From positions 51,460,001 through 51,524,000 of the forward strand of contig JBNRSN020000023.1 in the NCBI GenBank assembly GCA_051313645.2: a stretch of 64,000 nucleotides of DNA, written 5' to 3'. The translations under genes were made by a program, and so were the position numbers. Shown one piece after another: positions 19,990 through 63,618 of this stretch (positions are counted from its first letter, which is position 1; every line of letters begins with the position of its first letter). Below the pieces are notes generated by a model that was not told the origin of the DNA, did no database searches, and worked only from the letters and a program-made list of their open reading frames with translations. This DNA is from Centroscyllium fabricii (taxonomy: Eukaryota).

Positions 19990-20663
19990 TACAGGTTGAG
20001 CACCGGTAATCCGGCATCCGATGGTCCGGCACCTGCAGTGGTCTGGCACGAATTGAAACCGGCGGTCTTCAGTTTGCGGAGCAGCCGCTCGGTGGCGCCA
20101 CTGTTTCCCGCTGTGAAGCATATAAATTTATTTTTCAAAAAATTACATTTTTGATTTAAATATTTAATTAAATGCCATTTTAATTCATTTTAAATATGTG
20201 ATTATTTTTATTTATTTGATGTCTAGGTGTATTTTCTGGGGTCTTCCAATTCATACTTATGGGGTTTCCATACATACGGAATACCGATAAGAATGAATGG
20301 GGATTCCCTTCTCTCATTTGTTAGGCCGGCCCACGTGATCCCAGGGACGCTCGCGAACCTCCTGCACCCCGGGAAACGTGGGCCTCTACCCGCCAGCACC
20401 CGGAGAGTCCCAGGAACGCGAATCTCCGTACCTCCTGGACCACCAGGTAGGCGGGCAATTTATTTGTGGATCGGCGGCATTTCCCCGCGGGAAGCCTCTG
20501 ACCACAAATTCAGCCCCATCGATTATCTCTGCCATTCCCTCACTCTGAAGTACAAGATCGGTCTGCTAATCAGTAAGTTTTCAACCTTCAGTGGTTCGGA
20601 ATTTTCAGTGGTCCGGCACCGGGTTGGTCCCGAGGGTGCCGGATTACCGGTGCTCAACCTGTA
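19990..20663. mobile_element. Tigger-like MITE inside a SINE
   Basis: TA TSD, TIR CAGGTTGAGCACCGGTAATCCGGCA; near-identical inverted copy at 54967-55646. Confidence 0.88.
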
Positions 20664-21049
20664 TCAGTAAAAGTGACCATTGAAGCCGTCGGTAAAAACC
20701 CAATTGGTTCACTAATGTCCCTTAGGGAAGGAAACCTGCCGTCTTTAGCTGGTCTGGGCCTACCTGTGGCTCCAGTCCCATGCCAATGTGGTTGACTCTT
20801 AACTGCCCTCCGAAGTGGCCGAGCAAGCCATCAAACTCTGGGAACTACGGGCGGGTAATAAATGCCAACCTTGCCAGCGATACCCACACCCCACGAATGA
20901 TTTTTTTTAAGGAAACACAAATCCAGGTTTTGTTCACCTCCAGTTTTTACTCTGGATTCTTCGGCCCAGAATCACTTCAGAATTTTTTTGAGGAAGCTTT
21001 CTCCAAGCCTTTCATCTCCACCATCCCATTTGGAACCTGTCCAGGCGGA

Positions 21050-22514
21050 CAGGATTAAGGTTTGGTGACGAGGGTGTTTGTTGCTTGGCGAACCGACCCC
21101 TGCCGTGCGGAGGCTGAACGCCAACTCTCTGACACCTCCTCCTACCTCCCCCTGGATCATGACCCCACTGCCAAACATCAAGCCACTGTTTCCAAGACTG
21201 TCACTGGCTTCATCTCCTCTGGAGATCTTCCCTCCATGGGTGTCAACCTCATCGTCCCCAAACCCACACAGCCCGCTTCTACCTCCTTCCCAAGATCCAC
21301 AAACAGGGTTGCCCTGGTAGACCCATCGTTTCAGCCTGTTCTTGCCCCATGGAACTGATTTCTTCCTATCTCGACTCTTTTTTCTCCCCTTTTCCAATTT
21401 TTTCCCAGCTACATTTTCCGATGCCTTCCGCCACTTTTAACAGTTTCCAGTTTCCTGGCCTGAACCGTCTCCTTTTCACTGTGGACGTCCATTCCCTCTA
21501 CACCGCCATCCCCCACCAGGATGGCCTGAGGGCGTTCTGCTTCTTCCTTGAACAGAGACCCAACCAGTCCCCATTCACATTGAACAACTTCTCCTTTGAC
21601 TCCAGTCATTTCCTCCAAATTAAAGGTGTTGCTATGGGTACCCGCATGGGTCCTAGCTATGCCTGCCTTTTCGTGGGATATGTGGAACACTCTCTGTTCC
21701 AGTCCTACTTGGGTCCCCTCCCTCACCTCTTTTTCCGGTACATTGATGACTGTATCGGTGCCGTCTCCTGCTCTCGCCCTGAACTAAACAATTTCATTCA
21801 CTTTGCTTCCAACTTCCACCCTTCACTCACCTTCACATGGTCCATCTCCAACTCTTCCCTTCCCTTCCTCGACTTCTCCGTCTCCATCTCTGGGGATAGG
21901 CTATCGACCAACATTCAGTACAAGCCCAGTGACTCCCACAGCTACCTGGACTACTTCCTCCCACCCCGCTTCCTGTAAGGACTCTATTCCATTCTCCCAG
22001 TTTCTCCGTCTCCTCCACATCTGTTCTGATGATGCCACCTTCCACACCAGTGCTTCCGATATGTCTTCCTTTTTCCTCAACCGATGATTCACCTCTACCG
22101 TGGTCGACACGGCCCTTGACCGTGTCCGTTCCATTTCCCGCACTTCTGCCCTCACCCCGGCCCCTCCCTCCCGGAACCACGATAGGGTTCCCCTTCTCAC
22201 CTTTCACTCCACCAGGCTCCACATTCAATGGATCATCTTCCGCCACATCCAACGTGATACCACCACCAAACACATTTTCCCCTCACCTCCACTTTCAGCA
22301 TTCTTTAGAGACCGCTCCCTCCGAGACACCTGGTCCACTCCTCTACCATGCCCAGCACCCCTTCCCCTTCGCCCGGCACCTACCCATGCAAGCGCAGGAG
22401 ATGCAATACCTGCCCTTTTACCTCCTCCCTTCCCACTGTCCAGGGCCCCAAACACTTCTTCCAGGTGAAACAGCGATTTACTTGTACTTCTTGCAATTTA
22501 GTATACTGTATTCG
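21050..22514 (+). mobile_element. Degenerate Penelope-like element (RT, Cys-rich linker, start of GIY-YIG endonuclease)
   Basis: DVHSLYTAIPH, QIKGVAMGTRMGPSYACLF, RYIDDC, IPFSQFLRL, CKRRRCNTC, FTCTSCNLVYCI; multiple frameshifts. Confidence 0.88.
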
Positions 22515-22850
22515 GGGGATAAATTGGGTCGCGCGCCTTTTCTGGTGGTAACCTCGGCGGTGCGCTACTTTTAGCGCCTGCCTGCCGCTGGCACCGTTAC
22601 CGCTGATATTCGGTTGTAGCGCCCATAGTAGGAGGTTGGGTGCTTCTGCAAGCGCACAACTCGTTCTTTAGGCGCTACAACCGAAGTTCCGGGCACTGTG
22701 GCGTGAAGCGACACGCAGCACAGAGTGCCGTGCCACGGTACTGCAGGCCTTCCTCCCCTGATTAAAGGGGAGGGGCCTAGCGCGGTTTCGGCCAGAGCCC
22801 CGCAGGGCCGCCAAGCCGCCGAAGGAGCCCGGCACTCGAGGGAAGTGCCA
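22515..22850. mobile_element. Harbinger-derived non-autonomous fragment
   Basis: Homologous to 55900-56230 and (inverted) to 37430-37755; TTAGCGCC subterminal motifs. Confidence 0.65.
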
Positions 22851-23277
22851 GACTCAGAGGCGAGGGCGCTACCCACTGAGCCACGGCCGATACTGTGACA
22901 AAGGCACTATATAAGTACAAGTTGTTGTTGTTAGTGGGGTCCTGGACAAAATTTATCCCTCAACCAAGACCGCTAAAAACAGATTGTCTGGTCATTTATC
23001 TCATTGCTGTCTGGGTGACTTGTAGCGTGAACATTTGCCATTGCATTATTAACAGCGACTACACTTCAAGACGTGGCTACGATGCACTTTGGGGGCTGAG
23101 GTTGTGAAGGACGCTGCGTACGTGCAAGGCCTTTCTTTGAGCAGTACAACATGGAGAGGGTTGGTGTGGTATTTTGGAACGGTTCCATGAACACTGACCA
23201 GTGCCGAGGTCTGAAGACTCAAACATGTTCTCCTGCTGGCTCCAGATCAGTGATTCAAAGGTTTCCTTTCTTTTCAG

Positions 23278-23378: not shown

Positions 23379-23933
23379 GTAATGTTCAGAAAATTAAAAA
23401 ATATAATTAAAAAGCCGTATATTACCCTGTATACCCGCCCCCAAAAATCCAAAACGCTCGCAAATGTAAAAATTAATTAATGCTAATTCTGTCAGGCTAT
23501 TGATTTCCGGGTCAGTTTGGGTCACCAATGGCTCAGGTACTGTGTTGGGCAGTGATAAAGGTTACAGGTCACCTCACCGGTTTGTGCTGAGGTTAGGTAC
23601 GCCCTGACTGTCTCTAGGGATTCGGATGGGGGGAATCGGACAGGGTGCCCGATCCGACTCGTTCTCCAGTAGCCCCTCTTAGTAAGTGTATGGGTGTGGT
23701 CCTTGCTGGAGGGCGAGATCGGAATCGGCTGTGGCAGCACCCACCCCGTGGCCAAATAGCCCGCTGATACTCAGTGACCAGCTTCGCACCTGAAGAATGG
23801 TCACTTTGAGTGAGGTATTGGAGGGCAGCGGGCACCCGGGGATTTGTGACCAGCAAGAGTCACATGGGGAAGGGCGTTCTCTTCAGGGGGCTGGGGGTGA
23901 AGGAATTTGACAAATTCAGTCAGCTACTCTCTC

Positions 23934-24553
23934 TATCTAACCCGTGCTGTACCTGCCCTGGGAGTGTTTGATGGGACAGTGTAGAGGGAGCTTTACTCTG
24001 TATCTAACCCATGCTGTACCTGCCCTGGGTGTGTTTGATGGGACAGTGTAGAGGGAGCTTTACTCTGTATCTAACCCGTGCTGTACCTGCCCTGGGAGTG
24101 TTTGATGGGACAGTGTAGAGGGAGCTTTACTCTGTATCTAACCCGTGCTGTACCTGCCCTGGGAGTGTTTGATGGGACAGTGTAGAGGGAGCTTTACTCT
24201 GTATCTAACCCCGTGCTCTACCTGCCCTGGGAGTGTTAGATTTAACAGTGTCGAGGGAGCTTTACTCTGTATCTAACCCATGCTGTACCTGTCCTGGGTG
24301 TGTTTGATGGGACAGTGTAGAGGGAGCTTTACTCTGTATCTAACCCGTACTGTACCTGCCCTGGGAGTGTTTGATGGGACAGTGTAGAGGGAGCTTTACT
24401 CTGTATCTAACCCACGCTGTGCCTGCCCTGGGAGTGTTTGATGGGACAGTGTAGAGGGAGCTTTACTCTGTATCTAACCCGTGCTCTACCTGCCCTGGGT
24501 GTGTTTGATGGGACAGTGTAGAGGGAGCTTTACCCTGTATCTAACCCATGCTA
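23934..24553. repeat. 67-bp tandem repeat, about 9 copies
   Basis: Unit TATCTAACCCGTGCTGTACCTGCCCTGGGAGTGTTTGATGGGACAGTGTAGAGGGAGCTTTACTCTG. Confidence 0.95.
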
Positions 24554-25742: not shown

Positions 25743-25949
25743 ACAGGTCCGGCACCGTTAATCCGGACACCGTTAATCCGGAAACTTCAGTCATCCGGCA
25801 TGAATCCAGGCCTCTCCCCGACTGATCTGCACATGCGCAAAATGGCCGCCGCGCTTGGCCGTGCATGCCCGGGCCTCTCCCCGACTCCTATTGAGTTAGT
25901 CTAAACAATTGATGCTTCGGCGAGCGCATGCGCAGACCATTCAAAATGG

Positions 25950-26566
25950 CCTTAAGGGCCATTCGTTAAGGGCCCTTAATTGGCATGTTTAATGCCATTT
26001 TTAGGGCCCTCAGCCATTTTGAGCTGTTTCCCGCCCTAACCCCGGCACCTTAAACCCCGCTGGGTGAAACCCAGCAGGAGCACAGCGCTGGTTATTACTT
26101 TCTCCTTCAAGGTGTGAAGGACATGCTGCCAAATGCTTGGCATGCCTCCAGCACCTTAGAGGAGTAAGTTACTCCGTGCTGTCTGCAGCAGCTGTGGGCA
26201 AAAACTGAGAAATCTCAGCTCTGCACATTTGCTCACAGCCGGGGCCGAGCTGTCAAGGATTCTGACCCCGCCCGCCCACCTGTCAGTCACCAGCACTTGA
26301 CCTTTCCCATTGGTTCCACTCGACTGTGATGTCACAGTGGAGTGTTTCCATGGGAACTGTCAACAACCAATGCTGGAACTGTCAATCAAATTCCTCACAG
26401 CCCCGCTGGAGCCCGACTCGATTAACTTAATTACCACCCGCTGCCGCCGGCATGGATTTAACAACTCAATTAAATTAAAATTGCGTGGGCTTCCCAGCTG
26501 TTTGGGCGGGTGGGACAGGAAGCCGCCCAGACCAATCCCCGCCAGGTTCCCGCCCTTCCGGCAAAA
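25950..26566. mobile_element. Harbinger-type MITE (partial, inverted relative to 35455-36198)
   Basis: High similarity to 35455-36050 and 45446-46050. Confidence 0.75.
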
Positions 26567-28529
26567 CATAAGAACATAAGAACATATTTCTTATGTTCTT
26601 AAAAGACCCCCCTATGATTCCATGACTATCAAACACCTTTTGAAAGTCCATCAACAACAACCGCACTACCCTCATCAACCCTCTCCGTTATGTCATCAAA
26701 GCACTCGATCAAGTGTGTCAGACATGATTTGCCTTAAACAAATCCATGCAGGCTGTCATTTATTAACTCATATTTTTCCAAGTGACCATTAATTTTGTCC
26801 TGGATTGTTGTCTCTGCCGCCGTGTCTGTTTCTTATTCCCTTCAGCAAGTCACCTTGGCATTGTCAGAAAGTCTGACAATATAATTTTTAGTACCATATT
26901 CCTGATTGCTTATAAGCAGGGATTGGAATAGGTTGCTGCACCAGTCACTGAGCCCAACCTCAACCTACTCCGTTCGTTCATTGTCACATTTTGCCCTGAC
27001 GCGGCCGTACATTTACAAAGCACAAGCAAGTTTTTTGGGTCAAATAAGTCAGCACATTCATTGATCTTGCATGCAATGCGAGTGAAATAAAAGTGGATCA
27101 GTCCATTTGGAATTCGATACGACGGGAATGAATGGAATGGGATATGGCCCACCTGGAATCCTGTATAATGGGAATGAATGGGTTGAGGTTCTATCCATAG
27201 GAATGGGAGTGAATGTGAACAAGCCCATTGAAATTCTTGGAGGTTTTGGGGCTCTATGTTGTGAATTGGATGGCCGCCATTAGAATTTGGACCCCATCCA
27301 ATTGGGACTTTGTTGTCAGCCGTGGTTCAGTGGGCAGCACTCTCGCCTCTGAGGCAGAAGGTTTGTGGGTTCAAGTCCCACTCCAGAGACTTGAGCACAA
27401 AAATCTAGGCTGACGCTCCAGCGCAGTGCTGAGGGAGCGCCGCACTATCTGAGGTGCCGTCTTTCAGATGAGATGTTAAACCGATCAGCTTCCTCAGGTG
27501 GTTGTAAAAGATTCTACGGCACTATTTCGAAGAAGAGCAGGGGAGTTGTCCTCGGCATCCTGGCCAATATTTTTCCCTCAATCAACATCACAAAAACAGA
27601 TTATCTGGTCATTATCACATTGCTGTTTGTGGGAGCTTGCTGCGCGCAAATTGGCTGCTGCATTTCCCACATTACAACAGTGACTATACTTCAAAAAGTA
27701 CTTCATTGGCTGGAAAGCGCTTTGGGACGACCGGTGGTCAGGAAAGGCGCTATAGAAATGCAAGTCTTTCATTGATCTTCAATACATAGAAACATAGAAG
27801 ATAGGAGCAGGAGTAGGCCATTCGGCCCTTCGAGCCTGCTCCGCCATTCAATGAGATCATGGCTGATCATCCAAACCCAGTACCCTGTCCCTGCCCCGTC
27901 CCCATATCCCTTGATCCCTATCGAGCCTGCACCGACACACATCCCACCCCATCCCCGTAACCCCACACAGTCAACCCCCCTAACACTAAGGGTCAATATA
28001 TCCTGGCCAATCAACCTAACCCGCACATCTTTGGACTGTGGGAGGAAACCGGAGCACCCGGAGGAAAGCCACGCAGACACGGGGAGAATGTGCAAACTCC
28101 ACACAGATAGTACCCGAGGCTGGATTTGAACCCGGGTCTCTAGTGCTGTAAGGCAACAGTGCTAACCACTATGCCACCGTGCCGCCCATACAGCGGGAGG
28201 AGGGCACACTATCATTAAAGATCTATGTTTGGATCAGAATTTGGCCCATTTCATTTGAAGTGTAATTGCACGGTTCATCTTCCTGTGAGCGTCTGAACAA
28301 TTTCTTAGAAATGATAATCTGTGCCCCTAACTGAAATATCTACCCCTGCCCCTCGCACTGTACAAAATGAAATAAACTTACTGCCCTTCACGTTAGGCCC
28401 GACTCTCATCCAAATTTAGAATTCCAGTGTAACAACCCGCTTCCCATTCCCTCTGTTTTACAGAATTCCAATGGGCCTCTTGCCATTTCTTCCCATTGTG
28501 GCCACACAAGTCAATGGTTGTCCGTTCCT

Positions 28530-31239: not shown

Positions 31240-32740
31240 GCAGTACTGAGGAAGTGCTGCACTGTCTCAGGGACAGTACTGAGGGAGCACCGCACTGTCT
31301 GAGGGACAGTACTGACGGAGCGCTGCACTGTCGGAGGGGCAGTACTGAGAGAGCGCTGCACTGTCTGAGGGACAGTACTGAGGGAGCACCGCACTGTCTG
31401 AGGGGCAGTACTGAGTGAGCGCTGCACTGTCGGAGGGGCAGTACTGAGAGAGCGCTGCACTGCCGGAGGGGCAGTACTAAGGGAGCGCAGCACTGTCGGA
31501 CGGGCAGTACTGAGGGAGCGCTGCACTGCCGGAGGGACAGTACTGAGGGAGCGCCGCACTGTCGGAGGGGCAGTACTGAGGTAGCGCTGCACTGTCGGAG
31601 GGACAGTACTGAGGGAGCGCCGCACTGTCGGTGGGACAGTACTGAGGGAGCACCGCACTGTCGGAGGGGCAGTACTGAGGGAGCGCAGCACTGTCGGAGG
31701 GACAGTGCTGAGGGAGTGCTGCACTGCCGGAGGATCAGTACTGAGGGAGCGCCGCACTGTCGGAGGGACAATTTGAGGGACCACTGCACTTCCGGAAGGT
31801 CAATACTGAGGGAGTGCTGCACTGTCGGAGGGACTGTACTGAGGGAGTGCCACACTGTCGGAGGGGCAGTACGGAGGGTGTGCTGCATTGTTGGAGGGGC
31901 AGTATGGAGAGAGTGCTGCATTGTTGGAGGGGCAGTACTGAGGGAGCACTTCACTGTCGAAGGGGCAGTACTGAAGGAACGCTGCATTGTCAGAGGGGCA
32001 GTACTGCGGGAGCGCGGCGCTGCAATGTTGGAGGCTTAGTACTGAGGGAGCGCTGCACTGTTGGAGGGTTAGTACTGAGGGAGTGCTGCATTGTCGGAGG
32101 GGAAGTACTAAGGAAGCGCTGCACTGTCGAAGGGGCAGCACTGAGGGAACGTTGGACTTCCGGAGGGTCAATACTGAGGGAACGCTGCACTGTCGGAGGG
32201 GCAGTTCTGAGGGAGCGCCGCACTGTCGGTGGGGCAGTACCGAGGGAGCGCCATACTATAGGTGAGGCAGTACTAAGGGAACGCTGCACTGTTGGAGGGG
32301 CAGTGCTGAGGGAACACTGCACTGTCAGAGGGGCAGTACTGTGGGAGCGGGGCACTGTGGGATGGGCAGTACTGAGGGAGCTGTGCACTGTCAAGAGGGG
32401 CAGCGTTGAGGGAGCGCTGCACTGTCAGAGGGGCATACTGAGGGAGCGTTTGACTTCCGGAGGGTCAATACTGAGGGAGTGCTGCACTGTCGGAGGGACA
32501 GTACTGAGAGAGCACCGCACTGTCGGAGGGGCAGTACTGAGGGAATGCTGCACTGTCGGAGGGACAGTACTGAGGGAATGCTGCACTGTCGGAGGGGCAG
32601 TACTGAGGGAGTACCGCACCGCACTGTCGGAGGGGCAGTACTAAGGGAACGCTGCACTGTGGGAGGGGCAGTACTGAGGGAGCTATGCACTGTCGGAGGG
32701 GCGGTACTGAGGGAGTGCTGCACTGTTGGAGGTGCTGCCT
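31240..32740. repeat. 33-bp minisatellite (about 45 copies) expanded inside a DeuSINE-like element (31157-33062)
   Basis: Unit CAGTACTGAGGGAGCGCTGCACTGTCGGAGGGG; SINE head upstream and Deu core/tail downstream. Confidence 0.93.
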
Positions 32741-33659
32741 TTTGGATGAGACATTAAACCGAAGCCCCGTCTGCTCTCTCAGGTAGATGTAAAAGATCTC
32801 ATGGCACTATTTTGAAGAAGAGCAGGGGAGTTATCCCCAGTGTCCTGGCCAATATTTATCCCTCAATCAACATCAGTAAATAACAGATTATCCGGTCATT
32901 ATCACACTTCTGTTTTGTGGGAGCTTGCTGTGCGCAAATTGGCTGCCGCATTTCCTATAGTAAAACAGTGACTGCACTTCCAAATGTACTTCATCGGCTG
33001 TAAAGTGCTTTGGGATATCCGGTGGTCGTGAAAGGCGCTATAGAAATGCAAGTCTTTTTTTTATACAACAATAGCATGTGGTTGTGTTAAAGATGCAATG
33101 CAATTCGATAAACATGGGAGCTAGTCTTATCTTTGGACGATGGTGCAATTAAGTCAATGGAAGGGAAATCGGGTGGGGCTCATAACAGCCGACTAGAAAC
33201 ATAGAAGATAGGAGCAGGAGTAGGCCATTCGGCCCTTCGAGCCTGCTCTGCCACCCAATGAGATCATGGCTGATCATCCAAACCCAGCACCCTGTCCTTG
33301 CCTTGTCCCCATATCCCTCGATACTTATCGAGCCTGCACCGACACATATCCCACCCTATCCCCGTAACCCCACGTATTCAATCCCCCTAACTCTAAGGGT
33401 CAATTTATCCTGGCCAATCAACCTAACCCGCACATCTTTGGACTGTGGGAGGAAACCGGAGCACCCGGAGGAAACCCACGCAGACACGGGGAGAATGTGC
33501 AAACTCCACACAGATAGTACCCGAGGCTGGATTTGAACCCGGGTCTCCAGTGCTGTAAGGCAACAGTGCTAACCACTATGCCACCGTGCCGCCCAATTTG
33601 ATATTGCCCATTTTACACCATGGGCCAATTGTATAATTAGCCCACAGTGTCACTTAATA

Positions 33660-35450: not shown

Positions 35451-35454
35451 CTAT

Positions 35455-36198
35455 GGGGGCGATTTTGCTGGAAGGGTGGGAACCTGGCGGGGATTGGTCT
35501 GGGCAGCTTCCTGTCCCGCCCGCCCAAACAGCTGGGAAGACCATGCAATTAATTGAGTTGTTAAATCCCCGCCAGCGGCAGCGGGTGGTAATTAACTCAA
35601 TCGAGTCGGGCTCCAGCGGGGCTGCGAGGAGTTTGATTGACAGTTCCAGCACTGGTTGACAGTTCCCATGGAAACACTCCGCTGTGACATCACAGTCGAG
35701 TGGAACCAATGGGAAAGGTCTAGTGCTGGTGACTGACAGGTGGGCGGGCTGACTCAGAATCCTTGACAGCTCGGCACCGGCTGTGAGCAAATGTGCAGAG
35801 GTGAGATGTGTCAGTTTTTGCTCACAGCTGGTGCAGACAGCACGGAGTAAATTACTCCTCTAAGGTGCTGGAGGCATGCCAAGCATTTGGCAGCATGTCC
35901 TTCACACCTTGAAGGAGAAAGTTATAACCAGCGCTGTGCTCCCGCTGGGTTTCACCCAGTGGGGTTTAAGGTGACGGGGTTAGGGCGGGAAACAGGGCAA
36001 AATGGCTGAGGGCCCTTAAAATGGCATTAAAAATGCCAATTAAGGGCCCTTAACGAGGTGACAACCCATCCCCTCCGGCCGGGGGCGGGGAATCAGGGCG
36101 GGGGAAAATGTAAAAGCGGCGGGGGGTTGGGGGTCGCGACCCACCGGTTCTGATATTTTCCGAAAACCCCGCCTCACGGAGACATGAAAATCCCCCCC
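35455..36198. mobile_element. Harbinger-type MITE
   Basis: Imperfect TIRs GGGGGCGATTTT / AAAATCCCCCC; full-length relative at 45446-46221. Confidence 0.75.
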
Positions 36199-41691: not shown

Positions 41692-42789
41692 AATAACTTT
41701 CAAAAGGGAATTAGATAAATATGTGAAGGGGAAAATTTTTCAGGGCTCTGGGGCAAGAGCGGGCGAGTGGGACTAATTGGATCGCTCTTTCAAAGAACCG
41801 GCACAGGCACGATGGGCCGAATGGCCTCCTTCTGTGCTGTTTCATTCTATGATTCTAATGTTCTTAATCTGGCAGCCCTGGAGATATCTAGTAACCAATG
41901 GTTACAACAGGTGAAACATGGCCCACACACTAGTTTCTCCTCTACCTTGTCTCCGGAGTTGGAAAGGGTTCAGGCCAGTTGGCCGCACACCCTGTTACAC
42001 GGCGCAGCCAGGGACAAGCAAGGAGAGTACGAGGTACTAAAAGCGGCCGACTAAAATCATAACTTCCTGCTGCTTTATGATAATTTGGTTCAGAAGCAGA
42101 AATATGTTTTAGTTTGGCAGGGAATCCATGTCCAGGGGGGTTTAGCAATGCATGATTTTGTGAAGTTCGGTTTAATTTAGTTTTTGTGGTGAATTCCAGG
42201 CCCACAGCTTCAAATTGCTGATTAGAATTGGGGAAGAGAAAATAAAACCTCTACTGAGATGAAGGGTACGGTAGCATCGTGGTTGTGTTACTGGACTTGT
42301 AATCCAGAGGCCTGGACTAATGATCCAGATTTTTGAATATTGAGGGAATCAAGGGATATGGGGATAGTGCAGGAAAGTGGAGATGAGGTAGAAGATCAGC
42401 CATGATCGCATTGAATGGCGGAGCCAGGCGCGAGGGGCCGAATGGCCGACTCCTGCTCCTATTTCTTATGTAAACGTGAGTTCAAATCCCACGACAGCAG
42501 CTGGGGAATTTAAATTCAGTTAATTAAATAAATAAATAACGGTAATGGTGATCTAAGGAAGGACGTTCTTGCCATGGAGGGAGTGCAGAGAAGATTCACC
42601 AGGCTGATACCTGGGATGGCAGGAATGACTTATGAGGAGAGACTGGGTTTGTACTCTCTGGAGTTTAGAAGATTGAGAGGGGATCTCATCGAAACGTATA
42701 AAATTCTAACTGGTCTGGACAAACGTGATGCAGGAAGAATGTTCTCGATGATCGGAGAGTCCAGAACCAGGGGTCATAGTCTGGGGGGG

Positions 42790-44430: not shown

Positions 44431-45445
44431 TAAGGGGTAACTCATTTAGGACAGAGATGAGGAGGAATTTCTTCACCCAGAGAGTGGAGAACCTGTGGAA
44501 TTCTCTGCCACAGAGGGCGGTGGAGGCTGGGTCATTGAATATATTCAAGAAGTGATGGCTAGGGGCGGAGTCAGCTTCAGGCATGCCCGGGCATGTATAC
44601 ACACAGGCAAAAGGCAACTATATACAACAGTGGTTTACCACAAGAAGGAGCTGGATGTATTTCTTAAAGCTAGAGGGATCATGGGATATGGGGAGAAGAC
44701 AGGGACAGGGTATTGAATTTGGATGATCAGCCATGATCTCATTGAATGGCGGAGCAGGCTCGAAGGGCCGAATGGCCTACTCCTGCTCCTATCTTCTATG
44801 TTTCTATATCAGGAAACTACCAGATTATCATAAAAGCCCATCTGGAAGGAAATCTGCTGTCCTTACTGGGTCTGGCCTATATATGACTCCAGACTCACAG
44901 CGATGTGGCTGACTCTTAGCTGTCCTCTGAAGTGGCCCAGCAAGCCACTTCGGTGCACCAAACTGCTACAGGGAAGATGGACTGCAGCAGTTCAAGAAGG
45001 TGGCCCACCAGCACCACCACCTTGAGGGCAATTAGGGATGGGCAATAAATGCTGGCCTTGCCAGCGAAGCCCACAAGCCATGAAACTACACGCAATGGAG
45101 GAAGGGACCCATTTGTCCAATTTAAAAAATATTGGGAGTAGTAAAAAAGAAAGACTTGCCTTTCATTGACTAACTGTACTTTCAAAGCAGAGCTGGTGCA
45201 ATAACAACAACTTGCATTTATATAGCACCTTTAATGCAGTAAAACATCCCAAGGCGCTTCACAGGAGTGCAAAATTTGACCCTGAGCCACATAAGGAGGT
45301 ATTAGGCCAGGTGAGCCTAAGCTTGGTATTCAAGTTAGGGGGATAGCCAAATACTGCAGATGCTGGAAATCCAAAATAACAACAGTAAACGCTGGAAAAA
45401 CTCAGCAGGCCAGGCAGCATCCGTGGAGAGAGAAACAGAGTTAAT

Positions 45446-48048: not shown

Positions 48049-51000
48049 TGTGGTAACCATTCTACGATACCACTGTACCCTTATGGCTAACAATGGGCTG
48101 TGCAGATGTTAGGCACAGCCCTGTATACTATGACACTGTTGGGAGCTAGGTCAGCCACACCTCTAACTCCTCCCCCAGGTGAGGTCCGGTTATAGGTGGG
48201 ATCTGACCGAGGCTCCTTCATTCCTGTACTGTAGTTCGTCTGGAGAGTAGTTCCATTCTTAGTAATTAAAAGCCTTTAGTTTCGGTAACTACGCGTCGAC
48301 TCTTTTAATCGAAGATATTGACGATACGTCAATTTTAATTACTAATTATTTTAAAATGGAGAGCAGCACGGTTAAACCTGAGAAGCTGGACGTCAGTCCC
48401 CAGGACCCTGCCGCTGCCGCTACCTACGAACACTGGTTCGGCCTCCTGGAGGCCTACATGGACGCCGCCAAGGCTACATCAGACAGGGACAAGCTGCATG
48501 TCCTGCGATCGAGGATCTCCAGCAGGTATTCACCCTCGTCCGGAACGCCTCGACCTACATAGCGACTGTACGAATTTTGAAGAAATGTTACGAGCGCCCG
48601 GTCCACTCAGTCTACGCCCGACATGTGCTGGCGACCAGATCTCAGCTACCGGGTGAGTCCAATGAGGAGTTCGAGCAAGCGCTCCTGGCCGTAGTACGGG
48701 TCTGTGGCTGCAAAGGCACAACAGTTGAAGAGGAGGAAGAACTCCTCGTTCGGGACGCTTATGTTACAGGACTGAGGTGTGTGGAAGCCCGCCAGCGGCT
48801 ACTAGAGAGAGACAATTTATCCCTCGAGGAGGCGACTAAGATAGCCAAATCAGTAGAGGGGGCCCGTAGCAAGTTACAGGCGTACAGCGGCACTAACCCG
48901 CAAGCCTACAACATATGGGCCGCGCCACAACAGGCCCAGGCCTGGGCGCCACGGGCCGAGGCCCCCACGATGGCCGCGACGGCCACTAAAGACACTAAAG
49001 ACAAGCGCTGCTACTTCTGCAGCCAGGGACTGCACCCTAGAGCGAAATGCCCAGCCAGGACAGCGACCTGCGAGAAATGTGCGAAGAAGCGACACTACAC
49101 TAAAGCCTGCAGATCAGCTCCAGCAGCGCCCAACTCAAGGTACAACAGTGCAGCCTGTGAGAGCACCGACAGACACCAGGTAAGCTGCAATAGCAGCGCG
49201 ATCCAGCGACGGTACGGGGGTAGACAACAAGCGCCCCCATCTCCCACCCCGATGCGGCAAAGGCCGGCCAAGCGCGACCCCCCAACGCGGCCGGCTGCGT
49301 GCGAATCACGGGCACCGCCAGCCCGACCAGCGTGGCCCGCTGCGTGCGAATCACGGGCACCGCCAACCGGACCACCGCGGTCCGCTGCGTGCGAATCACG
49401 GGCGCCGCCAGCGCGTTCACAGGGCCCCACCGTGTGCATCCCCTCGGAAACGCCATTTTGTAACCAGAGCCCCTCCATGTGCGAGCCAGGGGCGCCGCCA
49501 TCTTGTATCCAGGGCCCCTCCATGTGCGAGCCAGGGGCGACGCCATCTTGTATCCAGGGCCCCTCCATGTGCGAGCCAGGGGCGCCGCCATCTTGTGCAC
49601 AGCCCCAATCAGCAGGGGCTGCGGCAGCCAGAATCAGGGTTAGCCAGGGCAGGCCCCATACCCTGTCTAACTCCATAATGCCGATTACCATTAATAATCA
49701 TACTGTCGACTGCCTTTTCGACACAGGCAGCACTGAGAGTTTCGTTCACCCTGATACAGTGCGGCGCTGCGGACTGCAGGTCCTGCCCACCAACTACCAA
49801 GTTTCCCTAGCTTCACAGTCCCACACCGCGGACGTCACCGGCTACTGCTCCGTCACGCTCACCGTCAAGGGGCGCATGTACCGTAATTTTAAATTGTATA
49901 CCCTCCAACAGCTGTGTGCCCCAGCCTTACCAGGTTTGGATTTCCAGTGCCACTTCAGGAGCGTGACAATGGAGTTCGGCGGGACCTTACCCCCCCTCAC
50001 CGTCAGTAGCCGGGACAATTTCCCCCCAAAGTGGAGCCCGGCCTGCGGCCTCTCCACCCTGAGAATCGACCCCCCCTCGCTGTTCGCCAACCTCGATCCG
50101 AAGTGCAAACCCATTGCCACTAAGAGTCGGCGGTACAGTGAGGGGGATCGCACGTTTATCAGGTCGGAGGTCGGGCGGATGCTGAAGGAGGGGATAATTG
50201 AAGCCAGCACCAGCCCCTGGCGCGCCCAAGTTGTAGTGGTGAAGTCTGGCGAAAAACAGTGGCTGGTTATCAATTACAGCCAGACTATCAACCGCTACAC
50301 CAGGCTCGACGCCTACCCCCTCCCCCGCATCTCGGAAATGGTCAATCAGATCGCCCAGTACAAGGTGTTCTCTACGATCGACCTTAAGTCGGCGTATCAT
50401 CAGCTCCCGATTCGGAAAGCCGACCGCCCCTACAACGCCTTCGAGGCGAACGGTCGGCTCTACCACTTCCTCCGGGTCCCCTTTGGCGTGACCAACGGAG
50501 TGTCAGTGTTCCAACGGGAGATGGACCGTATGGTTGACCAAAACGACTTGCAGGCCACTTTCCCCTACCTGGACAACGTGACCATCTGCGGCCACGACCA
50601 GCAGGACCACGATGCCAATCTGGCCAAATTTCTCGCCACGGCGGACAAGCTGGACCTTACGTATAACAAGGACAAATGTGTCTTTAATACAGCCTGGCTC
50701 GCCATCCTCGGATACGTGGTGGAGAACGGGCTCCTCGGCCCCGACCCACAGCGTATGCGACCCCTGCAAGAACTGCCCCTACCTCACAACCCCAAAGCCT
50801 TGAGGAGATGCCTAGGATTTTTCTCCTATTATGCACAATGGGTCCCACAGTTCGCAGATAAGGCTAGACCACTCCTCAAGGCTGCCGCCTTCCCCCTTTC
50901 TGTAGAAGCCCAAACGGCATTCGCAAGGATAAAGGAAGACATTATCAAGGCGACCATGCTCGCTGTTGATGAATCCATCCCTTTCCAGGTGGAGAGCGAC

Positions 51001-52790
51001 GCTTCGGACTTTGCCCTTGCTGCCACCCTGAATCAGGCAGGCAGGCCCGTAGCGTTTTTCTCCCGCACCCTACAGGGACCCGAAACTCGCCACTCAGCAG
51101 TGGAAAAGGAGGCCCAGGCCATCGTGGAGGCCGTGCGCTACTGGCGTCATTACCTGGGCGGTAAGCGTTTTACCCTGCTCACCGACCAACGGTCGGTGGC
51201 GTTTATGTTTAACAATAAACAACGGGGTAAAATCAAGAATGATAAGATCCTGCGGTGGCGGATCGAACTCTCGACTTACGAGTACGACATTCTTTACCGA
51301 CCAGGCAAACTCAATGATCCCCCGGACGCACTGTCCAGGGGACCCTGCGCCAGTGCCCAGCTAGACCGGCTGAAGGACCTCCACGACCGCCTCTGCCACC
51401 CGGGTGTCACCAGACTCGCCCATTTCGTTAAATCTCGTAGCCTTCCCTACTCCATCACGGAGATTAAGGCTATGACCCGAGAGTGCCCTGTCTGCGCCGA
51501 GTGCAAACCCCACTTTTTCCGGCCAGACACGGCGCACCTCATTAAGGCCACCTGCCCCTTTGAACGTCTCAGCGTGGACTTCAAAGGCCCCCTCCCTTCC
51601 ACCGACCGCAACTCATACTTCCTCACGGTAGTGGATGAGTTCTCCCGCTTCCCCTTTGCCTTCCCCTGCCCAGACATGACGAGCGCGACGGTGATCAAAC
51701 ACTTCACCACGCTGTTCGCCATTTTCGTTCTCCCCAGCTACATCCATAGCGACCGGGGGTCATCGTTCATGAGCGATGAACTGCGCCAGTTTCTGCTCCA
51801 GAGAGGGGTTGCCACGAGCAGAACGACCAGTTATAACCCCCGGGGGAACGGCCAGGTAGAAAGGGAGAATGGGATTATCTGGAAGGCGGTCACCCTGGCT
51901 CTCAAGTCCAGAGGCCTTCCAGTGTCCCATTGGCAGGCAGTCCTCCCAGACACGCTGCACTCTATTCGCTCTCTGTTATGTACTGCCACTAACGCCACCC
52001 CGCACGATCTGATTTTCTCTTTTAACAGGAGGTCGACTTCGGGGACAGCTCTCCCTCCATGGCTGACGACTCCGGGGCCGGTTTTGCTTAGAAGGCATGT
52101 CCGGAGCCACAAGACGGACCCCCTGGTGGACAAGGTACAGCTCCTACACGCAAACCCGCACTACGCCTTTGTGCAGTTCCCGGACGGGCGTGAGGACACC
52201 GTGTCCATCAGGGACCTGGCTCCCGCAGGAAGCACCACCGCAGAGCCCCCAGCCGGCCAGCAGGCCGATCAACCACCAGACGCACGATGGCCCCCGAGTT
52301 TCCCCAACTACGACCCGGACGACGGGGACCAGCCAAGCCCACCGCCACCTGAAGTCACAGCGCCGGCAGATGCTGGCTATTCGACCCAGAAGGCACCACC
52401 ACCAACACCGGAGCGCCGGCGGTCCTCCAGGCAGAGACGACCGCCGGACAGACTTATCGTGAACTGTTCGACCCATTCACCCCCCCCGGACTCAAAGTTT
52501 TTAAGAAGGGGTGAATGTGGTAACCATTCTACTATACCACTGTACCCTTATGGCTAACAATGGGCTGTGCAGATGTTAGGCACAGCCCTGTATACTATGA
52601 CACTGTTGGGAGCCAGGTCAGCCACACCTCTAACTCCTCCCCCAGGTGAGGTCCGGTTATAGGTGGGATCTGACCGAGGCTCCTTCATTCCTGTTCGTCT
52701 GGAGAGTAGCTCCGTTCTTAGTAATTAAAAGCCTTTAGTTTCGGTAACTACGCGTCGACTCTTTTAATCGAAGATATTGACGATACGTCA
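48049..52790 (+). mobile_element. Full-length Ty3/Gypsy LTR retrotransposon (Mag-like)
   Basis: LTRs 48049-48331 and 52516-52790 (TG..CA; 4 substitutions + one 8-bp indel by eye), PPT AAGAAGGGGTGAA, gag-pol order PR-RT-RH-IN. Confidence 0.97.
48356..52557 (+). CDS. Gypsy gag-pol polyprotein (one frameshift near 48525; 1326-aa open frame)
   Basis: Two CX2CX4HX4C knuckles, protease FDTGS, RT IDLKSAYHQ/VPFGV/YLDN, RNase H SDAS/EKEA/TDQ, integrase HHCC + VDFKGP/SDRG/GQVER. Confidence 0.93.
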
Positions 52791-53784
52791 GAGGCGCCAA
52801 TACATAACCTTCCCCATGGATGCCGAGCAGCAGCAGCAACTCCATGAGGGGTTCGCGGCTATCCATGGCTTCCTCATGGTGCACGGTGTCATTGATTGCA
52901 CTCATGTGGCATTGCGGGCACCTTATCGGACCGCAACAGGAAGGGCTTTCATTCCCTTAACGTCCAACTCGTCTGCAACCACCGGCAGCTCATCATGGCA
53001 GTGAATGCTCAGTGCCCAGGGAGCACGCATGATTCATTCATTCTGCGACAGAGCACTATCACCAACCTGTTTGAGGGACCCAATCACCCAGATGGATGGC
53101 TTCTGGGGAACAAGGGGTATGGTCTCGCCCCCCTGGCTCATGACACCACTCCATGCACCCCAGACACCTGCTGAGGATCGCTACAACATCAGCCATCAGA
53201 TGACCAGGGCCATCATTGAACAGACTATTGGCATCCTCAAAATGCAGTTCCACTGTCTGGAACACTCTGGAGGTGCCCTCCAGTACGGGCCTGACTACGT
53301 GTCGCGCTTTGTGGTGGTGTGCTGCATGCTGCACAACCTGGCAATCTTCAGGACACAGCCACTACTGCCAGATCTTGTGCCAGCAGCGGAGGAGGAGGAG
53401 GAGGCGGCGGAGGAGGAGGAGGAAGATGAGGATCCTCAGCAGCAGCCCCAGCAGAGGAGGCTCCTGCAAACTGGAAGGGCTGTGTGTCAGAGGCTAGTGG
53501 ACAGCCGCTTCTAGGTGCCTCCTAATGGAATGAGGCTGGAAGGAGGTGTGGGCTTCAGCAACACCTGTCCATGTATTTTCAGTGACTTTACTCCTTATTT
53601 CTGTTAATTTAAATAAATGCACAGTGAGGTACCCACCCCACAAAACATAAATAACATAGCCAAGGTGGCAAGGGAGGTATGATGGAATGAGTGTAGGTAC
53701 CGACTTCTTTGGATGGATAGTGCCAAAGGCTGCTGTTCTGAGGAGCAAGAGGAAGGAGAGAGGAGAGGATGCTGATGAACTCAC

Positions 53785-54745
53785 CACTGCCACCCACAAC
53801 GGGGGTCGGCATCTCCTGAAGCCACAGGAGTACTCAGCCGGGTGCCCATAATCCTCGGCAGCTGCTCCTCCATCGGGGTTAGCTCCTCAATGTTGGGAGA
53901 GCCGCCCCCGGTGCGGTCCTGCTCCCTTCTGTTGCTGGCGAGCTTGCGCTGCAAGGAAAAGGAGAGAATGTGAGGTAGAGGAAAGGAAGTCGTGCATATG
54001 AAATGCCTAGCATGCATGAGCAAGTCCTTCAAGCATAGCAGTCTGAGTACAGAAGGCAATGAGAATTTCCTTCAAGCATAGCATCTGAGTACACAAGGCA
54101 ATGAGAATTTCCTTCAAGCATAACAGTCTCAGTACACAAGGCAATGAGAATTTCCTTCAAGCATAACAGTCTTAGTACACAAGGCAATGAGAATTTCCTT
54201 CAAGCATAACAGTCTCAGTACACAAGGCAATGAGAATTTCCTTCAAGCATAACAGTCTCAGTACACAAGGCAATGAGAATTTCCTTCAAGCATAACAGTC
54301 TCAGTACACAAGGCAATGAGAATTTCCTTCAAGCATAACAGTCTCAGTACACAAGGCAATGAGCAATTCCTTCATGCAACAGGCTGCTGAAGGACACAGA
54401 CCCTCAGGGCAATGAGGTTGTGTGCATGGGGGGTTTAGGACCCTGCAGCCAAGCATTTTGGCTCAGATGCAAAGAAACATAGAGTAACAGATTTTTTTAC
54501 TCACCCTCAGACCCCTGCAGAGGTCATTAAATTTTTTCCTGCATTGGAATAGAGTCCTAGGCACAACACTGCTGCTGCTCACAAGCTGTGCAACCTCATG
54601 CCACAGCCTGTTTGCCCTCCCTGGGCGTAGGTTTGCACCCACTCTGAGGGTACAGCGCTTCCCTGCGCTCCTCGACAGCATTCAAGAGGGCTTCAAAGGC
54701 CCTGATGGAAAACTTTTCTGCCTGTTCCCTCGCTGCTTTAGGCAT
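53785..54745 (-). pseudogene. Harbinger Myb/SANT-like DNA-binding gene, two exons (54745-54505 and 53948-53785), one frameshift
   Basis: KFSIRAFEALLNAVEERREAL..LWHEVAQLVSS..RTLFQCRKKFNDL | RKLASNRREQDRTGGG..LTPMEE; GTGAGT donors and TTGCAG acceptor. Confidence 0.82.
54016..54377. repeat. 43-bp tandem repeat, about 8 copies, in the Myb gene intron
   Basis: Unit CAAGCATAACAGTCTCAGTACACAAGGCAATGAGAATTTCCTT. Confidence 0.95.
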
Positions 54746-54966
54746 GGCCTCGGTTTTCAAAATGTCCTCTTCCAAGGTGTGGTCAGAGCACCAGTCATAG
54801 GAGGAAGTGAGCAGGGAGTGGCTGCAATGGGAGGAAGACCCTCCCCCCTTTAAGAAATGTTACTGAACTCGCAATCCCGAGGCCTGGACTAATAATCCAG
54901 AGATACAGGAGTATAGGTCACACCGTGGTAGTTTGGGAATTCAAATTAATTAAAATAAAAAGCTGG

Positions 54967-55646
54967 TACAGGTTGAGCACTGGTAATCCGGTACCCTCGG
55001 GACTAGGCCGGTGCCGGACCATTGAAAATTCCGAACCACTGAAGGTTGAAGAAGTGATGGAAAACTTACTGATTAGCAGCTCTATCTTGTACTTCAGAGT
55101 GAAGGAATGGCAGAGATAATTGATGGGGCTGAATTTGTGGTCAGAGGCGGTGGAAACGCCACCGATCCACAAATAAATTGCCTGCCTACCTGGTGGTCCA
55201 GGAGGTACGAAGATTCGCGGTCCTGGGACTCTCCGGGTGCTGGCGGGTAGAGGCCCACGTATCCCGGGGTGCAGGCGGTTCGTGAGCGTCCTTGGGATCA
55301 GGTGGGCCGGCCTAACGAATGAGAGAAGGGAATCCCCATTCATTCTTATCGGTATTCCGTATGTATGGAAACCCCATAAGTATGAATTGGAAGACCCCAG
55401 AAAATACACCTAGACATCAAATAAATAAAAATAATCACATATTTAAAATGAATTAAAATGGCATTTAATTAAATATTTAAAACAAAAATTAAATTTTTTG
55501 AAAAATAAATTTACATGCTTTACAGCGGGAAATGGTGGCGCCGCCGAGCGGCTACGCCGCAAATTGAAGAGCGCCGGTTTCAATTTGTGCCGGACCACTG
55601 AAGGTGCCGGACCTACGGGCGCCGGATTACCGGTGCTCAACCTGTA
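54967..55646. mobile_element. Tigger-like MITE inside a SINE (inverted twin of 19990-20663)
   Basis: TA TSD, CAGGTTGAGCAC TIRs. Confidence 0.88.
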
Positions 55647-55899
55647 TCAGTAAAAGTGACCACGGCGCTGTCAGATTGTCATAAGAACCCAACTGGTTCA
55701 CTGATGTCCTTGAGGGAAGGAAACCTGCTGTCCTTGCCCGGTCTGGGCCTATATGTGACTCCAGTCCCACACATCCCGTAGTTGACTGTTAACTGCCCTT
55801 AGAAGTGGCCGGGCGAGTCTCTCAGTTGTAACTAGGGCTGGGCGATAAATGCCGGCCTTGCCAGCGACGCCCACATCCCAGGGATGAATAAAAACAAAG

Positions 55900-59185: not shown

Positions 59186-59239
59186 GTAAGAGACATTCTT
59201 AACGTGCCTCTGAGCCTATTAGGGGTGGTCTTATTGTTT

Positions 59240-60997: not shown

Positions 60998-61140
60998 TCA
61001 TCCTCAGAAATAAAACACCACCAATTTGACAGAAAGCATTTCTTGCCTTTTTTTCTTCAGTAACAATAAGGAATTTCAGAGAGTTGCCCATTTAGAATTG
61101 TTTTTGAATCGTTCTCTGCTCCTTTTGGTTGCTCCCACAG

Positions 61141-61260
61141 TGGTCGGACCACGGCTGCGCCGCTCACCTCATCCACAGAGAGGATTACCAAGCGCTGACC
61201 AACCGGGAGCTCAAAGAGAAGCTGTACCAAGAAATCATCCACTACTGCGACAAGGGCAAG
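61141..61260 (+). CDS. DOCK5: DOCK5 exon (WSDHGCAAHLIHREDYQALTNRELKEKLYQEIIHYCDKGK)
   Basis: cccacag / gtgcgt, 120 nt phase 0-0; ELKEKLYQEII..DKGK motif. Confidence 0.94.
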
Positions 61261-61784
61261 GTGCGTGTGCACCACACGCGGTGACCCCCAGCACGTCCTC
61301 ACACATACTGACCCCCAGCACTTACTGCGTCACTCAAACCCCACCTCATACAATTTTCTTTTTGTTCATGGTCATCGCTGGCAAGGCCAGTATTTATTGC
61401 CCATCCCTAATTGCCCTCGAGAAGGTGGCGGTGAGCCGCCACCTTGAACCGCTGCAGTCCATGTGATAAGAACTTAAGAAGTAGGAGCAGGAGTCGGCCA
61501 TATGGCCCCTCGGGCCTGCTCCGCCATTCAATAGGATCATGGCTGATCCGAACTTAGACTCATGTCCACTTCCCTGCCCGTTCCCTGTAACCCCTTATTC
61601 CCTTATCAGCTAGGAAACTGTCTATCTCCGTTTTAAATTTATTTAATGTCGCAGCTTCCACAGTTCTCTGAGGCAGCAAATTCCATAGACTTACTACCCT
61701 CTGAGTGAAGAAGTTTCTCCTCATCTCAGTTTTGAAAGGGCAGCCCCTTATTCTCAGATTATTCAATTGAATTCAATTTTACTG

Positions 61785-62402
61785 TCATTCCAGTGTACTA
61801 GTACAATACAACGAAACGTAGATTCGCCGCTCCCGAGAGTAGTGCAAATAAGTTACATAACATGGGTTGCACACAATAAAGTACATTTCAGGTGTGCAGA
61901 TACTGGAGTTTTTTGTTAGAGTTCAGGAGGCTGACAGCCCTGGGGAAGAAGCTGTTCTTGAATCTGGTCGTGTGGGTGCAAATTGATCTGTAGCGTCTCC
62001 TGGAGGGCAGGAGAGTGAACAGACTATGGCTGGGGAGTGTGGGGTCTTTAATAATGTTCTGAGACCTCCGTAGGCAGCGTTTCAGGTAGGTCCATTCAAT
62101 TGATGGTAGCTAGGTGCCGGTGATTCGTTGGGCAGTTTTGACTACCCGCTGCAGGGCCTTCACCGTGGCCCGAGATAGTGCAGTTTCCATACCAGACTGT
62201 GATGCAGCTTGTCAGTATGCTTTCAATTGTGCAGCGGTAGAAGTTGTTGAGGATGCCGGATATCAGCTTGGCCTTTTTCAGCTTCCTTAGGAAGTACAGA
62301 CGCTGTTGGGCCTTCTGTATCAGAGAGGAGGTGTTTAGTGATCAGGAGAAGTCTTCCGAGATGTGGACCCTGAGGAACTTGAAGCTGGACACCCTTTCCA
62401 CC
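61785..62402 (-). mobile_element. Rex1/Babar-like LINE 3' fragment nested in a CR1 (61468-62755)
   Basis: Reverse-strand VSSFKFL..KAQQRLYFLRKLKK..FYRCTIESILTSCITVWYG. Confidence 0.8.
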
Positions 62403-62958
62403 TCAGCCCCTAGTTCTAGTCTCACCCATCAGTGGAAACATCCTCACCGCATCCACCCGATCAAGCCCCCTCACAATCTTATATGTTTCGATAAGATCGC
62501 CTCTCAGTCTTCTGAATTCCAATGAGTAGAGGCCCAACCTACTCAACCTTTCCTCATAAATCAACCCCCTCATCTCCGGAATCAACCGAGTGAACCTTCT
62601 CTGAACTGCCTCGAGAGCAAGTATATCTTTTCTTAAATATGGAAACCAAAACTGCACAGTATTCCAGGTGTGGCCTCACCAGTACCCTGTATAACAGCAG
62701 CAAGACTTCCCTGTTTTTATACTCCATCCTCCTTGCAATAAAAGCTAAGATTCCATTGGTGATGAAGGTGCTTCCACTTCTTTGTAGCAGTTTGGTACAA
62801 CTGAGTGATTTGCTCAGCCATTTCAGAGGGCAGTTAAGAGTCTGGAGCCACAGGTAGGCCAGACCGGGTAAGGACGGCAGATTTCCTTCCTTAAAAGACA
62901 TTAGTGAACCAGATGGATTTTTACAACAATCCAGTCGTTTCATAGTCACCATTACTGA

Positions 62959-63618
62959 TACAGGTTGTGCACCGTTAATCCAGCACCCTCGGGACCATGT
63001 CGGTGCCGGACTACTGAAAATGCCGAACCACCGAAGGTTCGGGGAGCGCATGCGCAAACCATTCAAAATGGCCGCTACGCATACCAGTCAAAATGGCCGC
63101 TGCGTATACCAGTCAAAATGGTCGCTGCGCATACCAGTCAAAATGGCCGCTGCACATGGGCAGACCAGTCAAAATGGCCGCTGCGCATGCGCAGGCCAGT
63201 CAAAATGGCCGCTGCGCATGCGCAGGCCAGTCAAACTGGCCACTGCGCATGCGCAGACCAGTCAAACTGGCCACTGCACATGCGCAGACCAGTCAAAATG
63301 GCCGCTGCGCCTGGGCAGACCAGTCAAAATGGCCTCTGCGCATGCGCAGACCAGTCAGAATAGCCGCTGCGCATGCGCAGACCTGTCAAAATGGTCACTG
63401 CACATGCGCAGACCAGTCAAAATGGCCGCAGCCCAGGTGCAGACCAGTCAAAGAGTGAGGGAATGGGATTTGCGGTCCTGGGACTCTCCGGTGCTGCCGG
63501 GGAGAGGCCCGCGCATCGCGAGCGTCCCTGGGATCACGTGGGCCGGCCAGCAGAATTCGTGCCAGACCACTGAAGGTACCGGATTATCGGGTGCCGGATT
63601 AACGGTGCACAACCTGTA
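62959..63618. mobile_element. Tigger-like MITE with about 14-copy tandem array, inside a minus-strand SINE
   Basis: TA TSD, TIR CAGGTTGTGCACCGTTAATCC; units GCGCATGCGCAGACCAGTCAAAATGGCCGCT. Confidence 0.87.

Follow-up and report, generated by a model that had tools for sequence, protein, structure and literature searches.

We analysed a 64,000-nucleotide stretch of the genome of Centroscyllium fabricii (GenBank assembly GCA_051313645.2, contig JBNRSN020000023.1, positions 51,460,001 to 51,524,000 of the forward strand; hereafter the window), in which members of one family of Tigger-like miniature transposable elements with inverted repeats (MITEs) interrupt the same base of one short interspersed element (SINE) family three times. 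A search by terminal inverted repeat (TIR) located six relatives of the MITE in the window, three in the host SINE and three (copies 4-6) outside it. Copy 1 (19992..20661, plus strand, 670 bp, TIRs of 28-30 bp) and copy 2 (54969..55644, minus strand, 676 bp) are of subtype A, with an AT-rich interior. Copy 3 (62961..63616, minus strand, 656 bp) and copy 4 (4098..4556, minus strand) are of subtype B, with a 31-bp tandem array at 63046-63452 and 4172-4435, respectively. Copy 5 (~5316..5815, plus strand), in which the first bases of the left TIR are eroded, has a third interior with another 31-bp array (5516-5731), and copy 6 (25744..~25955, plus strand) is a truncated relative whose TIR has diverged and whose insertion point is a TA inside a CR1 element; we looked for its second end and did not find it. 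Copies 4 and 5 lie in non-SINE targets, that of copy 4 being TTTTTTCTTG-TA-CCTAAAAAAA.

The element is a MITE: it is short (459-676 bp), bounded by TIRs of 28-30 bp with 1-3 mismatches per 28 bp (copies 1-4), flanked in these four copies by a TA duplication on both sides, and without transposase coding capacity. The longest stop-free frames in the MITEs reach 104-218 aa, and the two longest frames across SINE-MITE junctions gave no transposase match in Pfam and no homologues. Junction frames compared with protein sets matched 0 of 49 and 0 of 550 candidates; a third search returned seven weak matches whose best stretches fell on the tandem-repeat part, off the junction, and these were not used. 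As a check for host contamination, TIR and SINE motifs were sought in bacterial and archaeal genomes (0 matches) and in plasmids (0 matches). No partner transposase was found among the seven frames scanned with Pfam, out of 37 long open reading frames in the window. The sole DDE match in the scanned frames was a Harbinger-type DDE_Tnp_4 fragment (53005-53514, E=3e-11), which we rejected as a partner because the duplications and ends of that superfamily do not fit; Harbinger elements are not known to generate TA duplications with ends of this kind.

The copies form a single family, in which common ends enclose at least three different interiors, since both the end sequences and an internal block recur among them. 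About 63 bp of end sequence are common to all six copies and about 79 bp to all but copy 6. Between copies 3 and 1, the 79-bp and 63-bp ends are 89% alike and the internal block is 76% alike over 101 columns; this block is common to copies 1, 3, and 4, and copies 1 and 4 are identical at 33/33 bp of it. One end of copy 3 is closest to the off-SINE copy 4 (4/62 mismatches). The 31-bp unit of subtype B is repeated 8.5 times in copy 4 and 13.7 times in copy 3, and unit sequence also occurs at 25924-25951, in the range of copy 6. The unit combines GCGCATGCGC with AAAATGGCC, for which 15/16 and 17/21 window occurrences, respectively, fall within copies 3 and 4; we take the two to resemble NRF1 and YY1 binding motifs, and the array may be a mobile array of promoter-type sites. 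The array of copy 5 is GC-rich, has a period of 31-32 bp, and is unlike that of subtype B, so that one family holds two arrays that agree in period and are otherwise unrelated.

The host SINE is a dispersed, non-coding repeat of ~380 bp with a tRNA-like head and a tail shared with a probable long interspersed element (LINE); six copies or fragments could be aligned, at 19-30% pairwise divergence. Three are split by MITEs and have approximate ends: h1 (19863..20905, plus strand, split by copy 1), h2 (54857..55892, plus strand, interrupted by copy 2 and short at its 5' end), and h3 (62796..63752, minus strand, tail missing, split by copy 3). Two more are MITE-free, namely e1 (19590..19836, minus strand) and the fragment e2 (42268..42550, plus strand), whose head is broken by a CR1-type piece at ~42330-42468. 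The sixth, e3 (44808..45081, plus strand), is a 3' fragment that begins downstream of the target site and is uninformative about it. The empty e1 and the filled h1 stand head to head, ~25 bp apart. About 55 bp of the host tail align with the ends of longer repeats at 19016-19069 and 61369-61465, the former closing a decayed LINE-like 3' end (18700..19069, plus strand). These repeats are likely LINE ends, as a decayed frame suggests, and their element the likely retroposition partner of the SINE. The frame, at 18809-19021, matches exonised pieces in proteins, with three of four matches in Heptranchias perlo and Heterodontus francisci. Box-like motifs (A and B box) are visible by eye in the SINE head. 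The Rfam tRNA model scored e2 at 16.9 bits (E=0.18) and h3 at 12.1 bits (E=6.2), both below the gathering threshold of 29, and ARAGORN and Rfam at the gathering threshold returned no tRNA or Rfam match in the whole window. A motif search for the name of the SINE returned 0 papers in full texts and 0 occurrences in the PMC5786205 supplement, and the accessible parts of PMC5499810 and PMC6887750 did not name it.

Excision of the MITEs in silico, leaving one TA, restores the host SINE in each case. The resulting junctions are AAAAAGCTAG-TA-TCAGTAAAAG for copy 1, AAAAAGCTGG-TA-TCAGTAAAAG for copy 2, and, with the host on the minus strand, AAAAAACTAG-TA-TCAGTAATGG for copy 3, and the TA falls in the identical aligned column for all three hosts. 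Relative to the host, copies 1 and 3 are oriented alike and copy 2 is inverted. A sequence-only reading of the window had proposed these three insertions into one base of one SINE, with copies 1 and 2 opposed. Its coordinates agree with our TIRs and flanking TAs (19990-19991 and 20662-20663 for copy 1; 54967-54968 and 55645-55646 for copy 2; 62959-62960 and 63617-63618 for copy 3), and excision and alignment bear out both the common base and the inversion. That reading also held that copy 4, with its different flanks, makes targeting less than absolute. The flanks of copy 4 are indeed unrelated to the SINE, and the tally of copies at the SINE base is 3/6, two further off-SINE copies (5 and 6) having been missed. 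The different cargo that it assigned to copy 3 is correct for the subtype B array and does not extend to the ends and internal block shared with copy 1.

The target position is covered by five host copies, of which three are filled and two are MITE-free with the site deleted, such that 3/3 host copies with an intact site carry a MITE. The window contains no SINE site that is both intact and empty; two one-mismatch matches were found, neither inside a host copy. To estimate how often such a pattern arises by chance, we excised five MITE copies from the window and clustered the remaining 2800 TAs by homology. Three of five TAs drawn at random prove to be mutually homologous with a probability of 7.5e-5 (162/2,000,000 simulations). 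The value is 1.5e-4 for six draws and, when short consensus filters are applied, 3e-4 to 9e-4 (3e-4 for CnnnTAnnnG); all these values are uncorrected for the choice of a window with this pattern. With 20-22 TAs per host SINE, hitting the same TA three times has a chance of about 1 in 400, given three SINE hits. We regard the hot spot in this SINE as real and take the pogo/Tigger-like MITE to have probably inserted there repeatedly.

We next asked whether the insertions are independent or were copied together with their hosts. MITE copies 1 and 2 differ at 43/664 columns (6.5%), and their hosts h1 and h2 at 90/344 (26%; Fisher p=2e-17). The difference persists with CpG columns removed (MITEs 27/573 vs hosts 67/300, p=1e-14) and with the well-aligned 3' half of the host alone (p=3e-7). 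The MITEs are thus much younger than their hosts, and since both parts of a composite that was copied whole would be expected to diverge to the same degree, the gap argues for independent insertion. All three MITEs contain T4-T6 runs in the host sense, and such runs would hinder read-through of a SINE by RNA polymerase III. The flanks outside the SINEs are unrelated among the three hosts, for which reason segmental duplication was rejected. Together, the three insertions look independent. The sequence-only reading had argued that simple co-amplification of one SINE+MITE composite does not suffice, and the divergence gap, the two orientations, the two MITE subtypes, and the occurrence of the family outside the SINE all agree with it.

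What, then, singles out this base? Read towards the TA in the host or the reverse sense, the six half-sites of the filled SINEs are CTAG, CTGA, CTGG, CTGA, CTGA, and CTAG, with C at -4, T at -3, and a purine at -1 on both sides. The full motif CTnR-TA-YnAG occurs at 4 of the 2800 TAs, three of them the filled sites, and the looser CTnnTAnnAG occurs at nine. The off-SINE half-sites are CTTG, TAGG, CAAC (uncertain because of the eroded end), CCAC, and CTGT. Here C at -4 is found in 4/5 (background 0.23, p=0.011; 3/4 and p=0.038 without the uncertain site) and CT at -4/-3 in 2/5 (background 0.06, p=0.031; 2/4 and p=0.020 without it), all p-values being uncorrected. In this small sample, the off-SINE half-sites point to an intrinsic, symmetric preference. 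The target of copy 4 (4081-4097 and 4557-4573) is itself a near-palindrome of a T-tract and an A-tract, which extends its inverted repeat to 44 bp and is in line with a symmetric preference. The suggestion that the SINE target mimics the element's own CTG-TA-CAG end is not supported: the two are offset by one base on either side, and the sequence CTGG-TA-TCAG on which the idea was built is present for copy 2 only, copies 1 and 3 having CTAG.

We lean, with modest confidence, towards a short, symmetric target preference of a trans-acting pogo/Tigger-type transposase as the reason that the SINE base became the main landing pad. The MITE family would be non-autonomous, TA-targeting, and mobilised by a transposase encoded elsewhere. 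Transposases of the Tc1/mariner/pogo group act as two-fold symmetric dimers, and this one may read roughly 10 bp, with some four bases to either side of the TA, its preferred site being something like C-T-n-R-TA-Y-n-A-G. The host SINE would happen to match on both sides at this position; because few other sites match and the SINE is present in many copies, this base would take most insertions, and half-matching TAs elsewhere would receive the rest. Symmetric reading would explain both orientations, and there is no need for special recognition of the SINE.

Several results weigh against this explanation. First, it draws on just three events in one pre-selected window, whose scanned frames hold no transposase. 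Second, the filled sites themselves supplied the motif, which makes the count of 4/2800 circular, and the independent check consists of five half-sites only. Third, the full motif is matched by no off-SINE site of the three (the right half of copy 4 is TAGG; copy 5 has CAAC and CCAC), and CnnnTAnnnG alone fails to explain the triple (P 3e-4), so that a fairly strict preference must be assumed. Fourth, h1 and h2 are more alike around the junction than a 10-bp motif needs, with 2/30 mismatches within 15 bp of the TA vs 83/310 elsewhere (p=0.008). Lastly, the sequence-only reading had set a single clade of filled hosts as the pattern that would speak against targeting; run as a host tree, this check did not reject monophyly of the filled hosts (approximately unbiased (AU) test, p=0.43), which appeared in 28% of bootstrap trees. 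In the tree, h1+h2 have support of 90/87 and h3 groups with the empty copies, of which e2 and e3 fill under half of the columns; three columns favour a clade of filled hosts, and nine place h3 with the empties against h1+h2.

The conserved junction and the state of the empty hosts bear on some of the alternatives. The stretch around the TA is identical in h1 and h2 at 30/31 positions and is the top-scoring 30-column window of their alignment. Pairs with h3 show no such conservation (5/30, p=0.22; 7/30, p=0.47), and the h1/h2 test is one of nine. Longer recognition could produce this pattern, as could a short conversion tract or the lack of CpG in the stretch; being AT-rich and CpG-free, the stretch mutates more slowly. 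Both MITE-free hosts that span the target lost it by deletions of 10-13 bp, e1 at 19726-19745 (~11-13 bp shorter there) and e2 at 42505-42535 (left half of the target lost, ~10 bp shorter), the gap placement varying with scoring. About 5% of host columns are deleted as background (83/1605), and loss in both empties would have a probability of 0.3% if independent, a post hoc figure. These deletions could be excision damage or a trait shared by a subfamily. We also considered TA-TCAG-TA as an old excision footprint and did not adopt this reading: the MITE-free copies keep the same right-hand sequence, and the footprint would have one base too many.

Longer recognition can be extended into a history in which a Tigger-like lineage of cartilaginous fish evolved recognition of 20-30 bp of the SINE and cycled through insertion, deletion-prone excision, and re-insertion or homing until most intact sites were filled; we regard this as unlikely, if still worth entertaining. 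Dedicated targeting as such, in which the transposase recognises a longer, asymmetric SINE stretch of 20-30 bp and, in the style of Dada, uses it as a harmless multicopy landing site, we consider improbable. It would account for the filling of all three intact sites, the near identity of h1 and h2 around the TA, and a point enrichment of ~470-fold (95% interval 110-820) over the 3/2800 share of TAs, a value inflated by selection. Against it stand the three of six copies that lie elsewhere, the occurrence of both orientations, the lack of junction conservation with h3 in what is one of nine tests, and the expectation that a family with 2-bp duplications reads short sites. Of the strong sequence-directed SINE targeting put forward by the sequence-only reading, independent and sequence-directed insertion at one base stands, and dedicated targeting of the SINE is more than these data prove.

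Coincidence, that is, ordinary TA insertion with a mild bias and the choice of one triple-bearing window among tens of thousands, is to our mind a distinctly doubtful explanation. The window was chosen by eye for its pattern, and a probability of 1e-4 to 9e-4 per comparable window would not be negligible across a multi-gigabase genome. It requires, however, a window with 5-6 copies in addition to a rare triple; the triple fell in a three-member TA cluster and left clusters of 20-39 homologous TAs (CR1 tails, satellites) unhit; and the full occupancy of intact sites speaks against it too. We give a similarly poor chance to ectopic gene conversion or homing-like repair, whereby a break at an empty or excised SINE site was repaired from a filled copy together with the MITE and a short flank, and an inversion arose by excision and re-insertion or by TIR recombination. 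In its favour, the 30 bp around the TA diverge by 3-7% between h1 and h2, like the MITEs (6.5%) and unlike the remaining host (26%); h1 and h2 fall into one subgroup of the SINE, with 12 informative columns for this pairing vs 4 and 1; and short deletions, as breaks would cause, removed the site from both MITE-free hosts. Yet copy 2 needs the additional inversion step, copy 3, of a different subtype and at one end closest to off-SINE copy 4, is left unexplained, and the conserved stretch is expected to mutate slowly anyway. Finally, the reading that retroposition or duplication multiplied one ancestral SINE+MITE composite, which afterwards underwent inversion between TIRs and exchange of interiors, draws on the unrejected monophyly, the 28% of bootstrap trees, and the three favourable columns, and is very improbable in view of the four-fold gap between MITE and host divergence, the T-runs, the unrelated outer flanks, and the nine opposing columns; for copies 1 and 2 it is largely refuted, given equal substitution rates.

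How the proposed short, symmetric preference compares with known systems is set out below for the accessible parts of the papers cited. Insect Tig1-like Tigger elements (PMC7386202, supplement 3, rows 247, 248, and 253) have the TA duplication in common with the MITE. By text search, the TIRs of all three (CAGTATAATCTCACTAATCCGGCACT) likewise start with CAG and hold TAATCCGGCAC, whose distance from the end is almost that in the MITE, and they differ from ours at positions 4-15. There, CAGGTTGAG is absent and CAGGTTGTG turns up twice, internally both times; the text search, which covered two supplements, gave no exact TIR match. The first TIR bases do not fix the family, because one red-algal Fot-like TIR also starts with CAGGTTG (PMC7386202). 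Tigger elements have TA duplications and TIRs of 8-33 bp, a range that includes the MITE TIRs, and are found in five chondrichthyan species (PMC9219625). We call the family Tigger-like on TIR likeness alone. Passer, an autonomous element of the pogo superfamily, prefers the palindrome AAGTACTT with TA at its centre (PMC9976928), and so the idea that a preference reaching beyond the TA would be out of the ordinary for a pogo element is not supported. A central TA in a palindromic consensus and, in copies 1-4, G at -1 or C at +1 are shared with Passer; C at -4, T at -3, and a hot spot in a single repeat are features of the MITE not seen for Passer (PMC9976928).

Mariner/Tc1 elements read up to 8 bp of target (PMC3706591). 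Stowaway MITEs, also of Tc1/mariner type, show repeated insertion at one TA, where different lineages inserted independently and empty sites carry footprints or flanking deletions; MITEs that target specific sites in other MITEs have been noted as well (PMC1925063). The Stowaway case concerns one orthologous intron site across plant species, whereas ours concerns paralogous SINE copies in one genome. Listed target-specific DNA transposons include Dada, Pokey, and CryptonV (PMC3706591, PMC8869645), and the main texts of these two papers contain no occurrence of the word SINE. Like Dada and Pokey, the MITE has, within the window, inserted repeatedly at one base of a multicopy sequence, and Pokey also inserts elsewhere. 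Dada differs in its duplications of 6-7 bp, its lack of TIRs, and its targets in functional small-RNA genes, and among vertebrates it has not been found beyond ray-finned fish (PMC3706591); the MITE has TA duplications, 28-bp TIRs, and three of six copies at the site rather than nearly all. Pokey is of piggyBac type and lies in 28S rDNA. In architecture, with a tRNA-like head and a probably LINE-derived tail, the host SINE would resemble chondrichthyan SacSINE1 and CmiSINEs, which combine a tRNA-derived head with a LINE-derived tail (PMC5499810). Our literature search (outside which lay Repbase, Dfam, subscription journals, and bioRxiv supplements, any of which may list both elements) returned no description of a Tigger-like MITE that clusters at a single base of a SINE. 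We conclude that the hot spot probably behaves as other Tc1/mariner hot spots do, made sharper by a perfect target that is abundant, and that a Dada-like targeted family is an improbable reading.

The remainder of the window is repeat-rich, with CR1-type LINE pieces, a Gypsy-type element, the Harbinger-type fragment, and several SINEs. The Gypsy-type pol frame (48382-52557) runs for 1391 aa without stops through protease, reverse transcriptase, RNase H, and integrase (Pfam) and is bracketed by two repeats (48049-48331 and 52516-52790) with 96% identity; it is a young long terminal repeat (LTR) element with 45-bp tandem repeats inside. Decayed reverse-transcriptase frames at 21163-22574 (RVT_1, E=3e-5, below cut-off) look Penelope-like by eye. 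A separate three-copy repeat family lies at 25963-26566, 35453-36197, and 45444-46221 (87-93% identity), and the member that adjoins MITE copy 6 may have truncated it. Another tRNA-headed SINE family (4763-5216, 27314-27769, and 32701-33060) has no copy with the MITE; we take it to resemble Deu-domain SINEs such as SacSINE1. Minisatellite arrays occupy 23929-24552, 31240-32732, and 54025-54378, with periods of 67, 33, and 43 bp, respectively.

Integration by transposons that target TA is commonly regarded as close to random. Should half of this family's copies land at one SINE base, either the transposase has an unusually sharp consensus or the SINE is recognised, and in either case the system, if true, would offer a natural handle on pogo target choice and a candidate for site-biased integration. 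Were long-site recognition of the SINE true, a TA-duplicating superfamily would gain a SINE-targeted member whose transposase might be used for site-biased delivery. Such hot spots would also produce parallel insertions that mislead presence/absence markers and the dating of nested insertions, and they could place false SINE+MITE composite consensus sequences in repeat libraries.

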